Shown here piece by piece: positions 32,572 through 39,160 of a DNA stretch of 64,000 nt. The stretch is from an uncultured Heliomicrobium sp. Its GTDB lineage: Bacteria; Acidobacteriota; Blastocatellia; RBC074. Both the position numbers and the translations under genes were made by a program. The stretch lies in assembly GCA_964426025.1 (NCBI GenBank), contig CAYRQB010000001.1:1151-65150 (forward strand), read 5' to 3'. The notes under the pieces are model-generated. The model saw only the letters and a list, made by a program, of their open reading frames with translations. It was not told where the DNA came from and made no database searches. Positions within the stretch are counted from its first letter, which is position 1; every line of letters starts with the position of its first letter.

Positions 32572-33843
32572 ATGTTGTTCAAAAATTTCCTATCACTGGC
32601 CGGAGCCGAAATCGCCGCGAAGGCGTTGACCTTTGCGGCGTTCGCTTATCTGGCGCGAGTGGCCGGGCCGGACGGATTCGGTTACATCGAATTCGCGGCG
32701 GCTGTGGTGATGTGTGCCGGTCTGGTCGTCGAACAAGGCTTCAATCCATTCGGCGCGCGCGAAATCGCCAAATCGCCCGAACGGACGAACGCGCTGGTTT
32801 CGGAAATTTTTCTGGTTCGATTGGTTCTGGCAATCTGTTTGTATGTTGGCGTGGTCGTCTTCTCTCTGAGCTTCGATCGTTCGCCGCTGCTGACGCGCTT
32901 GTTGTTGGTTTACGGTTTGAGTCTGTTGGCGATGCCCTTGCTATTGCAATGGGTCTTTCAGGGTCACGACCGAATGCAAGTTGTCGCGGCGATTCAAATC
33001 ATACGGCAGATGGTTTTTGCGGCGATGGTCTTTGGATTCGTTCGCGAAGCTTCGCAAATCTGGATGGTCGGATTGGCGGAAACCGCCGGATTGATCGGCG
33101 CAGCGGCTTTCGGCGTCTGGATGTATCGTTGTCAATTGAACGGCAGAATTCATCTGCGGTTAAGCGTTTCATCCCGGTTGGTTCGCGAAGGCGCGACCAT
33201 CGGATTGAGCCAGATTTTCTGGGTCGTCAAAATGTCCGGCGCGACGTTGATTATGGGTTTGATGGCGACGGCTGAAGACGTAGGTTACTTCGGCGGAGCG
33301 ATGCGGATTCTGATGGCGCTTCACACCTTCGTCTGGCTTTACTTCTTCAATATGCTGCCGACGATGTCCAGGTCCTGGGCGGCTGCGGACGGTTCGTTTG
33401 CCGCACTGATAGCGCGTTCGATGCGATTGATTGTGGCGCTGTCGTTTGTCGGAGCGATCATCTGGGTGATGGCGTCTCCGTTGGTTGTCAGAATTGCTTA
33501 CGGCCAGGCTTTTGCTCCGGCGGGCGTGGCGTTGCAATGGTTCGCGGGCGTTTGCGCTGTGGCGGCCATCAGCGGTCATTACCGTTTCGGTTTGATCGCC
33601 GCCGGACATCAGACCGCAGAAATGCTGACGGCATTGATCGGCGCGATTGCCGCTGTGATTCTGGTTCCGGCTGGTTATTTCGCCTCTGGCGTTGGCGGAG
33701 CGGCGGCGGGATTGTTCATCGGCGAAGTTCTGATCTGGCTCAGCGCGTGGTGGTTCGGGCGAAGGAAATTGCACTTGGGTTCGCGCCGCTTCGACAGCGC
33801 GGCGGTCGGAAGCGCGGCTTATCAGGGTGAGGTCACACAGTGA
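32572..33843 (+). CDS. wzx: Wzx-type oligosaccharide flippase (polysaccharide biosynthesis protein, MOP superfamily)
   Basis: 423 aa with about 12 TM segments. Composition and length are typical of the PST-family Wzx. Confidence 0.75.
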   Translation: MLFKNFLSLAGAEIAAKALTFAAFAYLARVAGPDGFGYIEFAAAVVMCAGLVVEQGFNPFGAREIAKSPERTNALVSEIFLVRLVLAICLYVGVVVFSLSFDRSPLLTRLLLVYGLSLLAMPLLLQWVFQGHDRMQVVAAIQIIRQMVFAAMVFGFVREASQIWMVGLAETAGLIGAAAFGVWMYRCQLNGRIHLRLSVSSRLVREGATIGLSQIFWVVKMSGATLIMGLMATAEDVGYFGGAMRILMALHTFVWLYFFNMLPTMSRSWAAADGSFAALIARSMRLIVALSFVGAIIWVMASPLVVRIAYGQAFAPAGVALQWFAGVCAVAAISGHYRFGLIAAGHQTAEMLTALIGAIAAVILVPAGYFASGVGGAAAGLFIGEVLIWLSAWWFGRRKLHLGSRRFDSAAVGSAAYQGEVTQ

Positions 33844-35435
33844 TTGCAAATCGAGTAGCGGATTGGGAAACGAGTTCGGCATCGTCTGAATCGGAAGCCT
33901 TGTCGCGATTCGAACCTGAACCGTGGCGGTTTACGACGCGCGGGCTGGCCTGGAGATTGTTTCTGACTTGCTGGTTGGTTTACGCGATGCATTTCGCCAC
34001 CAACGTCGTGCGTGAAATTTATCCGGCGCTTTCCATCGGCGATCACTTTTCGTTTCGGGTTGACGAGTACGCCAACCTGCATCCTGATTTGTTTGAAAAG
34101 CCCGGTTACGGTTGGCACATCAACAACAACCCCGGAGCTTCGATGATCGCGGCGATTCCTTACGCCGTTGCGCGTCCGGTCATTGACCGCGTGGTCGAAC
34201 GCGTTCGTCAACAACGCGCGGCCAGCGGATTGACCGAACCGCCCGCTTACAATTCGCCGTGGCCATTGGCGCGAGAATTTTTCAAAGAATCCTGGAAGCG
34301 CGGTTACGACATCAAATTCGGTTTGGCTGCCTTGGTGACTCAGGCTTTGTGCATGGCTCCGATTTCCGCGCTCGGCGTGGTGGTCATGTTTTATGTGCTG
34401 AGACAGGTTTTCGCTTCGGACAAATGGGCGTTGTTGCTGTCGCTGCTTTACGGATTCGGCACGCCGGTTTTTTTCCGCACGGGTTTCCTGAACCAGAATA
34501 TGTTGATGGCGAATGCCGCTTTTCTGGCTTTGGTGGTGATGTGGAACCCGAGCGGCAGTCGGCGATTGACGACGCGAACCAGATACTTTCTGGGCGGCAT
34601 CGGAGGCGGAACTGCCTTGCTCATGGATTACAGCGGAATGGTGATGTTGCTCGGTTTGTTCGCTTACGGATTGATCAAACGTTGGCGCGAAGCTTCGATT
34701 GCCGATTCCGTACGTCACGGCGCGATGTATGTGCTGGGAACTCTGCCGCCGGTCGGTCTGCTGTGGTTTTATCAATGGCGAAGTTTCGGCCATCCGTTTC
34801 TTCCGGCTCAGCATTGGATGCCGAAAGTCGCTTATATCGAACAGGGTTATCAGGGATTCAGTTTGCCGCAACCGGATTTGCTGTTGGCTTTGCTGGCGGA
34901 TTACCGATACGGATTGTTCACCAGTTGTCCGCTGTTTCTGCTGGCGTTCGCAGCCTGGTGGGTGAACCGGCGTCACAGGCAATTGGAAAGCTGGGAATTG
35001 TTTTCGCTGGCGGCGATCAGCGCGGCGCTGTGGATTTTCTTCAGTTGCGTTGGTTATTCGCGGCTGCAATTCAACAGCGGCATTCGATATTTCGCTCCGG
35101 CCTTTCCGCTGCTGTTCATTCTGTCGGCGATTGTGTTGATGCGGTTGCCGAAGATGCCGGCTTACTTCATTGCCGTTGCCGCGCTGACTGAATCGTGGTG
35201 TCTGGCCATGTACAGAGATGTCGAACGCGGACTTGGCGTGATTGATCCGCTGGTCAACGTTTTCATAGGCGGATTCAAATTGCCCGCTTTGACCACGCTG
35301 CAAAATATGGGCGGACAGTACGGCGGATTTTCCGCTCAGGGAGTTTCACCTTTGCCGCTGTTCGTTTTGATGGCGGCGATTCTTTATGGAATTTGGTTCA
35401 GTACCGGGAGCGGTAGCGACCGGGTGAAGTCGTAA
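33840..35435 (+). CDS. Polytopic membrane protein, putative GT-C-like glycosyltransferase or polymerase
   Basis: 531 aa and multi-TM. The first loop contains RVDEYANLHPD, a DE motif. It is coupled to wzx by a 4-nt overlap. Confidence 0.5.
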   Translation: MIANRVADWETSSASSESEALSRFEPEPWRFTTRGLAWRLFLTCWLVYAMHFATNVVREIYPALSIGDHFSFRVDEYANLHPDLFEKPGYGWHINNNPGASMIAAIPYAVARPVIDRVVERVRQQRAASGLTEPPAYNSPWPLAREFFKESWKRGYDIKFGLAALVTQALCMAPISALGVVVMFYVLRQVFASDKWALLLSLLYGFGTPVFFRTGFLNQNMLMANAAFLALVVMWNPSGSRRLTTRTRYFLGGIGGGTALLMDYSGMVMLLGLFAYGLIKRWREASIADSVRHGAMYVLGTLPPVGLLWFYQWRSFGHPFLPAQHWMPKVAYIEQGYQGFSLPQPDLLLALLADYRYGLFTSCPLFLLAFAAWWVNRRHRQLESWELFSLAAISAALWIFFSCVGYSRLQFNSGIRYFAPAFPLLFILSAIVLMRLPKMPAYFIAVAALTESWCLAMYRDVERGLGVIDPLVNVFIGGFKLPALTTLQNMGGQYGGFSAQGVSPLPLFVLMAAILYGIWFSTGSGSDRVKS

Positions 35436-38168: not shown

Positions 38169-39160
38169 ATGAAGACAAATTGCGGGTTTCGGTTGTCATA
38201 CCCGCTTACAACGAAGAGGCCGCGGTTGGAGCCGAGGTGAAAAACATCCGCCGGGTTTTGCAACAGCACGGCATCGCGCACGAAATCATAATCGTTGACG
38301 ACGGATCGCAGGATCGCACGGCTGACGAAGCTTTGAAGGCCGAAGCCAGGGTGCTGCGGCATTTGAAAAATCGCGGTTACGGCGCATCGCTCAAAACCGG
38401 AATCGTCGCCGCCAAATACGACATCATTGCCATCACAGACGCCGACGGAACTTATCCGGCTGATCAAATTCCTGAGTTGCTGGAAAAATTGAGGACGGCG
38501 GATATGGCTGTCGGCGCGCGCATCGGATCGAACGTCAACATTCCGCTGATTCGCAAACCCGGCAAATTGATTCTTGGATGGTTGGCCGAACGCATCGCCG
38601 GTCGGAAGATTCCCGATTTGAATTCGGGGCTGCGAGTTTTTCGCCGCGAAGTGGCGACTCAGTACTTTCCGGTTCTGTCGAACAAGTTTTCTTTCACGAC
38701 GACCATCACGTTGGCGCTGTTGGCCGACGATTATACGGTCATCTATCACCCGATTGATTATTACGCGCGGATCGGACGGTCGAAGATCGTCCCGCGTCAT
38801 TTTATGGATTTCATCATGCTGGTCTTGCGCCTGGCCATGCTGTTTCAACCATTGAAGGTGTTTATTCCGGCATCGCTGTTGTTTGGTTTTCTGGGCTTTG
38901 CCAAAGTGGTTTTCGACATTGTTACTTCATCATTGCGCCATCCGACAAACGATTGGTCGGTGCTTTACACGCCGGTGCTTTCAACTTCGGCGATTCTGCT
39001 GTTGCTGACCGGATTGCAATTCCTGTTGATCGGAATGGTGGCTGATGGGGTCGTTCGCCGCATTGCCCTGAACGCGGGACCGATGGCAGTTTCACGAGCC
39101 GTCGTCGCAGCGGAAATGAATCAAGACCAACAACGGGAGATGACTCATATTGCAGAGTGA
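38165..39160 (+). CDS. GT2 polyprenyl-phosphate glycosyltransferase (GtrB/ArnC/DPM1-like)
   Basis: Motifs are VSVVIPAYNEE, EIIIVDDGSQDRT and AITDADGTYPA. Two C-terminal TM helices are present, as in GtrB. Confidence 0.85.
   Translation: MNEDKLRVSVVIPAYNEEAAVGAEVKNIRRVLQQHGIAHEIIIVDDGSQDRTADEALKAEARVLRHLKNRGYGASLKTGIVAAKYDIIAITDADGTYPADQIPELLEKLRTADMAVGARIGSNVNIPLIRKPGKLILGWLAERIAGRKIPDLNSGLRVFRREVATQYFPVLSNKFSFTTTITLALLADDYTVIYHPIDYYARIGRSKIVPRHFMDFIMLVLRLAMLFQPLKVFIPASLLFGFLGFAKVVFDIVTSSLRHPTNDWSVLYTPVLSTSAILLLLTGLQFLLIGMVADGVVRRIALNAGPMAVSRAVVAAEMNQDQQREMTHIAE

Follow-up and report, generated by a model that had tools for sequence, protein, structure and literature searches.

Probable lipid-linked ribofuranose decoration encoded by a UbiA-type phosphoribosyltransferase and two GT-C glycosyltransferases in an acidobacterial exopolysaccharide locus

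The addition of ribofuranose (Ribf) by a polyprenyl-phosphate 5-phosphoribosyltransferase (PPPRS) together with a glycosyltransferase of the GT-C type has been shown experimentally in Citrobacter youngae. There, alpha-Ribf side chains are added in the periplasm by a PPPRS fused to a HAD phosphatase, together with a small flippase and a GT-C that founded family GT136 (Kelly et al., 2024, PMC11127046). In the O1 and O2 loci of this species, these roles belong to ORF15 (PPPRS-PRP), ORF14 (a flippase with four transmembrane (TM) helices, called 'MATE' in the paper), and ORF12 (PMC11127046). The same study found that one epimerase of the short-chain dehydrogenase/reductase (SDR) type gives xylofuranose (Xylf), that DprE1/E2 homologs accompany arabinofuranose (Araf) systems, and that many pentofuranose systems are uncharacterised, with several GT-Cs in some of them (Kelly et al., 2024, PMC11127046). 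Here we analyse a possible member of this group, found in a stretch of 64 kb (hereafter the window) of contig CAYRQB010000001.1, which is deposited as an uncultured Heliomicrobium sp. At its centre a gene of the UbiA superfamily lies between the genes of two polytopic membrane proteins, here called GTC531 and GTC588, the second of which is followed by a family 2 glycosyltransferase (GT2) gene (Table 1). A preliminary description of this DNA had likened the locus to a pathway of the actinobacterial arabinose type.

We consider it probable that positions 33840-39160 encode two parallel extracytoplasmic, lipid-linked decoration modules of an acidobacterial exopolysaccharide (EPS) locus, one of which adds ribofuranose. 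The starting point is the UbiA homolog, which by its sequence belongs with the decaprenylphosphoryl-5-phosphoribose (DPPR)/PPPR synthases and not with the quinone or heme prenyltransferases. It matched Pfam UbiA at 1e-19 and passed both NCBIfam equivalog models for decaprenyl-phosphate phosphoribosyltransferase, with 252.4 bits against a cut-off of 234 for NF008977 and 219.1 against 207 for NF008978, while the remaining UbiA-superfamily models (UbiA, MenA-type, heme o, chlorophyll synthase) gave at most 48 bits. The grouping with quinone or heme enzymes, named beforehand in the preliminary description as the outcome that would speak against a DPPR-type enzyme, was therefore not seen. Residues 24-302 aligned with residues 14-292 of the cryo-EM structure of Rv3806c (8j8j) at 1.2e-29, with about 28% identity across 275 aligned positions, and the archaeal UbiA 4tq3 was matched at just 9e-4.

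The residues expected of such an enzyme are largely in place. The NDxxDxxxD motif, which lies in cytoplasmic loop 1 and binds Mg2+ and phosphoribosyl pyrophosphate (PRPP) (PMC10994848, PMC11127046), is formed by N79, D80, D83, and D87, and a K-R-x-x-E loop by K197, R198, and E201. When the Rv3806c contacts to PRPP, Mg2+, or decaprenyl phosphate (taken from PMC10994848) were mapped onto the window protein, 11 of 13 were retained (window = Rv3806c: R32=R22, K38=K28, Y76=Y70, N79=N73, D83=D77, K93=K87, R96=R90, Y144=Y138, K149=K143, F163=Y157, K197=K191), counting as retained the phenylalanine at the position of Y157, which also occurs in some mycobacteria. The two changes are Q135 to T141 and K208 to Q214. 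Nine of the 11 phosphoribose and pyrophosphate residues of the phosphoribosyltransferase branch are among those kept, with N73 and D77 bringing the total to 11 of 13. The 5-phosphate is held in Rv3806c by K28 and Y70, and ordinary UbiA enzymes do not conserve these phosphoribose sites (PMC10994848). Because of this strong homology and the conserved PRPP-binding residues, the window protein is predicted to transfer ribose-5-phosphate from PRPP; the earlier assignment of the gene as DPPR-synthase-like with an NDxxDxxxD motif was borne out by the model cut-offs, the 8j8j alignment, and the residue map. The identity of the gene is itself not new, since NCBI already labels such proteins decaprenyl-phosphate phosphoribosyltransferase.

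The GT2 is predicted to be a polyprenyl-phosphate glycosyltransferase making a polyprenyl-P-monosaccharide. It was matched in the PDB by ArnC at 3.1e-19 (residues 7-298 of 331), by dolichol-phosphate mannose synthase (DPMS) at 8.9e-18, and by GtrB at 5e-8, in agreement with its original description as GtrB/ArnC-like, ArnC aligning over the full length. Its best NCBIfam models were AglJ, a Dol-P-hexose transferase, PpgS, and ArnC, with every equivalog score below cut-off. The GTC588-GT2 pair is kept without UbiA in four of the comparison loci described below (L001, L087, L097, and L098), and because the pair stays together with or without UbiA, the GT2 is the probable donor synthase of GTC588, and GTC588 most likely the partner of the downstream GT2. 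In relatives, the genes after the pair are often those of an ICMT-like methyltransferase and of a second flavoprotein resembling UDP-galactopyranose mutase (UGM). GTC588 itself has NCBI relatives named 'glycosyltransferase family 39 protein' and carries a W116-x-D118-E119 motif that was invariant among 69 homologs. A profile search of its alignment against PDB sequences gave nothing useful. Its AlphaFold2 (AF2) model (pLDDT 87.1, pTM 0.86), which has a C-terminal alpha/beta extramembrane domain, was matched by Foldseek to STT3/AglB/PglB, ALG12, ArnT, and AftA at 6e-8 to 5e-5, with probability 1.00.

GTC531 had no sequence match in Pfam, NCBIfam, or the PDB, a profile search of its alignment against the PDB included. 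More than 1600 homologs with 60-83% identity were found, from Acidobacteria, one gammaproteobacterial metagenome-assembled genome (MAG), and one Chloroflexota MAG; some carry weak PMT/PMT_2 matches, and in 7 of the 120 best a C-terminal GT2 domain is fused. The AF2 model (pLDDT 82.6, pTM 0.87) was matched best by ArnT (5f15, 4.4e-4), then by Pmt4, AglB, AftB, and Emb, again with probability 1.00. D75 and D83 were invariant and E76 near-invariant in 62 homologs, in the loop after the first TM helix. According to its model, GTC531 is thus a GT-C_A-fold glycosyltransferase from a highly conserved unnamed family. The fold models and the acidic loop motifs (D75/E76 and D118/E119) agree with the earlier view that both proteins flanking UbiA are GT-C enzymes with such a motif; the periplasmic side of the motifs was inferred from the positive-inside rule and the fold.

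These genes are part of a run of six closely packed genes on the + strand, at 32.5-41 kb, that extends from a wzx-like gene through a gene for an AsnB-like amidotransferase, a type linked to XrtA/PEP-CTERM EPS loci. The wzx-like gene and GTC531 overlap by GTGA, as expected from the reported coupling of the upstream polytopic protein to wzx. A 16-nt spacer separates GTC531 from UbiA, and ATGA overlaps join UbiA to GTC588 and GTC588 to the GT2. The first of these two ATGA overlaps had also been reported, and it holds with the GTC588 start at ATG 36417, which is likelier than the alternative GTG at 36402 because the NCBI gene call is 583 aa. The proteins match NCBI entries of the 89,107-nt source contig at 100% identity. 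At 56-61 kb there are further genes, for a polysaccharide co-polymerase (PCP/Wzz, GNVR), a tyrosine-kinase-like ATPase, a Bac_transf initiating transferase, and Poly_export. The closest relatives of the window are Blastocatellia/Acidobacteriota MAGs, and in our reading the six genes belong to an operon of about 37 kb within a Wzx-dependent EPS locus of the Blastocatellia type (Acidobacteriota). Five contigs with the same synteny and 75-83% protein identity (L004, L006, L011, L012, and L015) are likewise labelled 'uncultured Heliomicrobium sp.'; equally similar contigs are labelled Blastocatellia/Acidobacteriota, and the Heliomicrobium names are probably a labelling problem of binned assemblies.

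In the proposed mechanism, the UbiA enzyme of the first module would act at the cytoplasmic face and charge polyprenyl phosphate with ribose-5-phosphate taken from PRPP, a phosphatase that has no gene beside UbiA in this window would remove the 5-phosphate, and the polyprenyl-P-ribofuranose would be flipped and used by a GT-C to add a pentofuranose branch to the polysaccharide in the periplasm. In the second module, the ArnC/DPMS-like GT2 would charge polyprenyl phosphate with a sugar from a nucleotide donor, and GTC588 may transfer that sugar, as the persistence of the pair with or without UbiA suggests. The earlier proposal of periplasmic glycosylation from polyprenyl-P-pentose and polyprenyl-P-sugar donors is, from the enzyme classes, a sensible reading. 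The default sugar of the first module would be D-ribofuranose rather than arabinofuranose, because there is no DprE1/DprE2 pair and no UbiA-adjacent epimerase. No flippase-type gene was seen in the window apart from that of the Wzx-like protein, which most likely flips the repeat unit; alternatively, it may flip polyprenyl-P-sugars.

Relatives of the locus were examined as neighbourhoods of +/-10 kb, from a genome scan with the UbiA protein (80 loci) and a metagenome scan with GTC531 (12 loci). The order radical SAM gene-wzx-GTC531-UbiA-GTC588-GT2 is kept in the spanning Blastocatellia contigs (L004, L007-L010, L012-L014, and L085) and in the more distant L100 and L101 at about 65% identity. 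The wzx gene adjoins the GT-C modules in L087, L098, L100, and L101 and is near-adjacent in L096 and L097. What follows the GTC531-like gene alternates. In L001, L097, and L099 it is followed by a cassette of a GT2 (or fused GT2), an extended SDR, a protein of about 150 aa, and a GMC-family FAD dehydrogenase (GMC protein), and in L098 by the SDR-150-aa-GMC part without the GT2; UbiA is absent from all four. Where the cassette is absent (the window, the Blastocatellia set, L100, and L101), the GTC531-like gene is followed by UbiA. No homologs of the cassette GT2, SDR, 150-aa protein, or GMC protein were found in the window. The GTC531 family thus lacks its usual GT2 partner exactly where UbiA is present, and for this reason GTC531 is, from gene order, most likely the user of the ribosyl lipid and our preferred candidate, with GTC588 and GTC775, the product of another GT-C gene of the window, as further candidates. 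The gammaproteobacterial L096 also favours GTC531, since it places PgpA-UbiA against a GTC531-type GT-C: wzx, PgpA, and UbiA stand directly before the GT-C and the cassette after it. The GTC531 and GTC588 homolog lists have about 17 contigs in common, as against about 5 shared with UbiA, which is a rough hint, the lists being clustered at 90%.

The GMC protein of the cassette matched the FAD glucose dehydrogenase 6a2u at 7.5e-12, and the membrane protein of about 150 aa has a C-terminal hydrophobic segment. The cassette, which alternates with UbiA, resembles an oxidise/reduce pair whose substrate would be a lipid-linked sugar. A more speculative proposal, to which we give little weight, is that UbiA-type PPPRS (with or without PgpA) and the GT2-SDR-~150-aa-GMC set are interchangeable donor-synthesis cassettes for the GTC531 family. 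If both feed the same transferase, the GT2-SDR-GMC route would be an undescribed oxidation/reduction remodelling of a lipid-linked sugar, analogous to DprE1/DprE2 but non-homologous, and PgpA-family proteins would be a new class of polyprenyl-P-ribose-5-P phosphatase. PgpA-family genes abut UbiA in three loci (L016, L096, and L100); in a fourth, L017, the distance is 4 kb. PgpA (phosphatidylglycerophosphatase A) dephosphorylates a lipid-linked phospho-head group, and by this analogy a PgpA-family protein is a plausible candidate for the polyprenyl-P-ribose-5-P phosphatase.

Several observations weigh against this account of the ribose module. No fused or adjacent 5-phosphatase is present, nor any HAD-IB or PgpA homolog in the window: of the HAD-UbiA fusion model NF006088, the UbiA homolog covers just positions 174-463, which form its UbiA part, and no PAP2 phosphatase was seen among the window ORFs scanned. 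Likewise, no small GtrA/SMR-type flippase was found in the window, where a GtrA query had no match, and there is no space for a small ORF between 32572 and 41190. UbiA is translationally coupled to GTC588 and not to GTC531. The invariant residues of the GTC531 family are identical with and without UbiA nearby, and GTC531 sequences from UbiA contexts are not monophyletic, both of which speak against a switch of donor. Homologs of GTC775 are present in L101 and also in two UbiA loci from Pyrinomonadaceae, both without GTC531 and GTC588. Finally, three extended SDRs in the window could epimerise the lipid-linked ribose, and the acceptor could be a protein or a lipid rather than the EPS.

The preliminary description had proposed an actinobacterial-style series from DPPR through decaprenylphosphoryl ribose (DPR) to decaprenylphosphoryl arabinose (DPA), with the HAD protein at 24129 as phosphatase, the FAD protein at 15983 as oxidase, the SDR at 13728 as the DprE2 equivalent, and the GT-Cs as arabinofuranosyltransferases. 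The genes it named all exist and are backed by strong HMM matches, including the GT-C at 18322 and the GT87/DUF2029 protein at 20662, and a genuine PPPRS and several GT-Cs do share the locus with an FAD protein, SDRs, and a HAD protein; AftA, AftB, and Emb are among the structural matches of the GT-C models. We nevertheless regard this series as very unlikely. DprE1-like and DprE2-like queries from a PPPRS/FAD oxidoreductase/SDR operon on a Flammeovirgaceae plasmid (L102) had no homologs in the window by tblastn and phmmer at E <0.5, and HAD-IB and GtrA queries from a Lactococcus plasmid locus had none either, yet the same queries recovered DprE1, DprE2, and HAD in two Acidiferrobacterales loci (L045 and L076). 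The FAD protein is UGM-like instead, matching eukaryote-type UGMs of the PDB at 2.5e-22 to 1e-20 over residues 39-491 as well as NF005548. The SDR at 13728 is an extended SDR of the nucleotide-sugar dehydratase/decarboxylase/epimerase type encoded on the opposite strand. The HAD protein is of the beta-phosphoglucomutase family, shows no similarity to a HAD-IB phosphatase from a PPPRS locus, and lies in another sub-operon, chained to CofD-like and nucleotidyltransferase genes; it was dropped as the leading phosphatase candidate on family and operon position. For both GT-C models, the AftA, AftB, and Emb matches were no better than those to ArnT, PMT, or STT3. Somewhat less improbable, but still unlikely, is that a single SDR epimerises the lipid-linked ribose, at C3 like ORF13 or otherwise, to xylofuranose or another pentofuranose. 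One SDR is enough to turn a Ribf system into a Xylf system (Kelly et al., 2024, PMC11127046), 13 of the 80 loci have an Epimerase-type SDR upstream of UbiA at a distance of at most two genes (in 7 of them directly upstream), and the window has extended SDRs at 13728, 43295, and 49435. None of these adjoins UbiA, however, and they score best against nucleotide-sugar enzymes. Most UbiA-adjacent SDRs elsewhere are only 22-25% identical to any window SDR, and for the best (L072 and L080, 33%) the score against a CDP-glucose-dehydratase-like SDR is nearly as high. The SDR at 13728, considered as an ORF13-like epimerase, was rejected, its similarity to UbiA-adjacent SDRs being generic.

The remaining alternatives concern the GT-Cs. 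That they decorate a protein, in the manner of PMT/TfpW-like O-glycosylation, or a lipid, in the manner of ArnT, seems to us less probable than a single epimerase, though not as improbable as the arabinose series. The PMT_2 family spans protein O-mannosyltransferases and ArnT, a passage of PMC11127046 cites PPPRS-dependent Araf glycosylation of pilin in P. aeruginosa, and the gene of a secreted 738-aa protein keeps recurring near UbiA. This protein resembles a GH30-type hydrolase, however, and is not an obvious substrate, and the GT-C genes overlap others within a long operon of GT2/GT4, wzx, and sugar-nucleotide genes, after which come those of the PCP, kinase, phosphoglycosyltransferase, and Wza. 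Least credible of all is that GTC531 is the missing Wzy-type polymerase, a role suggested in the preliminary description. Its remark that no obvious Wzy is present was sound, in that no Wzy_C or EpsG-type protein was seen among the window ORFs scanned, and GTC531 is coupled to wzx. However, GTC531 had no Wzy_C, EpsG, or O-antigen-ligase-like Pfam match, and its GT-C_A-fold model was matched best by the likes of ArnT, Pmt4, and AftB, with no Wzy, WaaL, or SEDS structure among the fold matches. Members of its family are also fused or adjacent to a GT2 predicted to make a polyprenyl-P-monosaccharide, and such fusion is the signature of a GT-C using this kind of donor. A Wzy may lie outside the 64-kb window, because the source contig is 89,107 nt (89 kb). 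Ribofuranose addition to the EPS by one of the GT-Cs, with GTC531 preferred, remains for us the probable reading.

Table 1. Positions of the genes discussed, in the window and, where a locus number is given, in comparison loci
Feature	Position	Strand	Evidence or remark
Extended SDR	13728	-	best against nucleotide-sugar dehydratases, UDP-xylose synthase, GalE
UDP-galactopyranose-mutase-like flavoprotein	15983-17944	+	NF005548 724.4 bits (cut-off 389); Amino_oxidase 2.6e-19
GTC775, PMT_2/STT3-like GT-C, 775 aa	18322-20649		HMM match
GT87/DUF2029 membrane protein	20662		HMM match
HAD protein, beta-phosphoglucomutase family	24129		11 kb from UbiA; only HAD in window
Wzx-like MOP-family flippase, 423 aa	32572-33843	+	Pfam Polysacc_synt 8.6e-30
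GTC531, GT-C, 531 aa	33840-35435	+	GT-C_A fold model
UbiA-superfamily PPPRS (predicted), 322 aa	35452-36420	+	NF008977, NF008978, 8j8j
GTC588, PMT_2-type GT-C, 583 aa from ATG 36417	36417-38168	+	Pfam PMT_2 5.5e-14
ArnC/DPMS/GtrB-type GT2, 331 aa	38165-39160	+	Pfam Glycos_transf_2 5e-28
AsnB-like amidotransferase (context gene)	39223-41121	+	Asn_synthase 2.7e-98; TIGR03108 552.9 bits, below 816.9 cut-off
Secreted 738-aa protein	41190-43406	+	TIGR03437 142.9 bits (cut-off 29.05); weak XynC match
PgpA-family gene, L016	9262-9876
PgpA-family gene, L096	6493-7041
PgpA-family gene, L100	10785-11264
PgpA-family gene, L017	14870-15442
Post-GTC531 cassette, L096	9608-13616
Post-GTC531 cassette, L097	9617-13648
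Post-GTC531 cassette, L099	9659-13604
Post-GTC531 cassette, L001	10001-15468
Post-GTC531 cassette, L098	9623-11776

The surroundings of the two modules hold further genes of interest. The secreted 738-aa protein, with a weak GH30-like region and a Solibacter C-terminal domain (and GH30C matches in homologs), is probably, from its domains, a polymer-processing hydrolase. Its homologs are the most constant PPPRS neighbours in other Acidobacteria, in loci of Pyrinomonadaceae/Chloracidobacterium (L016, L018-L027, and L057), often in two copies. L096 has a GH62 gene (an arabinofuranosidase family) in the place of the 738-aa protein, and together these neighbours hint at a pentose- or furanose-containing polymer. 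More distant UbiA genes have varying neighbours, including Epimerase-type SDRs, DUF362, LPG_synthase_TM, GHMP kinases, and other PMT_2 GT-Cs. Upstream of wzx, at 26377-32533, lie genes for a GT2 (Glyco_transf_21-like), further GT2-like protein(s), a polysaccharide deacetylase, and a radical SAM/SPASM enzyme. This block precedes wzx in many loci of different lineages, L001, L097, and L100 among them, and the radical SAM/SPASM enzyme is 88-92% identical among the Blastocatellia relatives and 73-79% in distant loci.

The UGM-like flavoprotein is encoded by the first gene of the long operon and has a C-terminal hydrophobic membrane extension of about 80 residues. A small membrane ORF of 101 aa at 17962-18267 is paralogous to this extension and 73% identical to a separate ORF of L100, and the flavoprotein suggests hexofuranose chemistry of the galactofuranose (Galf) type with a small membrane partner. 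The HAD gene is one of four overlapping genes at 21994-26255, which encode a CofD-like protein (712 aa; GAK-system CofD-like, 4e-22), the HAD protein, a GlmU-N-like nucleotidyltransferase, and a GT2 (243 aa). This chain fits a role in nucleotide-sugar supply, and the CofD-like protein, as a phospho-transfer enzyme encoded among EPS genes, is a hint of a phospho-linked substituent. Unusual sugars are suggested by the region 43295-50445, whose products are an SDR epimerase/reductase, a 681-aa radical SAM enzyme of the B12-binding type, a GT2, a C-methyltransferase whose N-terminal domain is zinc-binding, a nucleotidyltransferase, and an SDR resembling CDP-glucose-4,6-dehydratase (217 bits, below cut-off). 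Two other regions stand apart: a 1525-aa ORF with HEAT repeats and squalene-hopene-cyclase C-terminal-like repeats at 7362-11939, upstream of an opposite-strand sulfatase, and three tandem thioredoxin-fold AhpC/TSA/Redoxin paralogues on the - strand at 1844-3976, which have no relation to the glycan genes.

In soil, Acidobacteria form a dominant phylum, and to our knowledge their exopolysaccharides are almost uncharacterised. We know of proof for the PRPP-dependent route only in Citrobacter and Mycobacterium, with Pseudomonas added by inference. The mechanism of PPPRS and GT-C already has a published prototype. If our reading is right, the route of PRPP-dependent lipid-linked pentofuranose glycosylation would extend to Acidobacteria, and it predicts ribofuranose branches in a conserved EPS, other furanoses being probable as well given the UGM-like enzyme. 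The new leads are the missing phosphatase and flippase, the association with PgpA, and the GT2-SDR-GMC cassette that alternates with PPPRS.

In comparison with known systems, the window shares with the DPPR/DPA pathway of Mycobacterium tuberculosis (Rv3806c, Rv3807c, DprE1/DprE2, and Emb/Aft) a homologous first enzyme, with catalytic and PRPP residues kept, and GT-C enzymes as final transferases. Unlike that pathway, it has no DprE1/DprE2, its scanned ORFs showed no PAP2 phosphatase, its GT-Cs are not GT53/85/89 by sequence, and nothing indicates arabinose. The second module resembles the Gtr (GtrA/GtrB/GtrV) and Arn (ArnC/ArnT) systems in that a PMT_2/ArnT-like GT-C goes together with a GT2 that ArnC and DPMS match in full length; it differs in lacking a GtrA- or ArnE/F-type flippase gene and in belonging to an EPS operon, not to a prophage or lipid A locus. 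The EPS locus of the Lactococcus plasmid NZ_PP589792, in which a hypothetical 533-aa membrane protein, a DPPR synthase, a HAD-IB phosphatase, and GtrA occur, is similar in that, within a polysaccharide cluster of the Wzx/Wzy type, a PPPRS adjoins a large membrane protein that carries no annotation. There, however, the phosphatase and the GtrA flippase lie beside PPPRS, and the membrane protein had no detectable similarity to the window GT-Cs (hhalign against the GTC531 family was negative, E 0.16).

With respect to C. youngae O1/O2, the window lacks the fused HAD phosphatase domain and the small 4-TM flippase gene, its host pathway is Wzx-type EPS rather than an ABC-transporter O antigen, and its ribose module is interleaved with a second GT2/GT-C module. 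Its GT-Cs are PMT_2/ArnT-like or unnamed, while the GT136 founder, compared by description only, is described as EpsG-family-like; neither window GT-C matches EpsG in Pfam. On the other hand, in both cases a PPPRS homologous to Rv3806c adjoins a GT-C in a surface-polysaccharide locus, the predicted path leads from PRPP through polyprenyl-P-Ribf to the addition of a branch in the periplasm, and DprE1/E2 are absent, as in the Ribf-type O1 locus. Of the known systems, the PPPRS and GT-C pentofuranose side-chain system of Kelly et al. (2024) is the best match of the window module.

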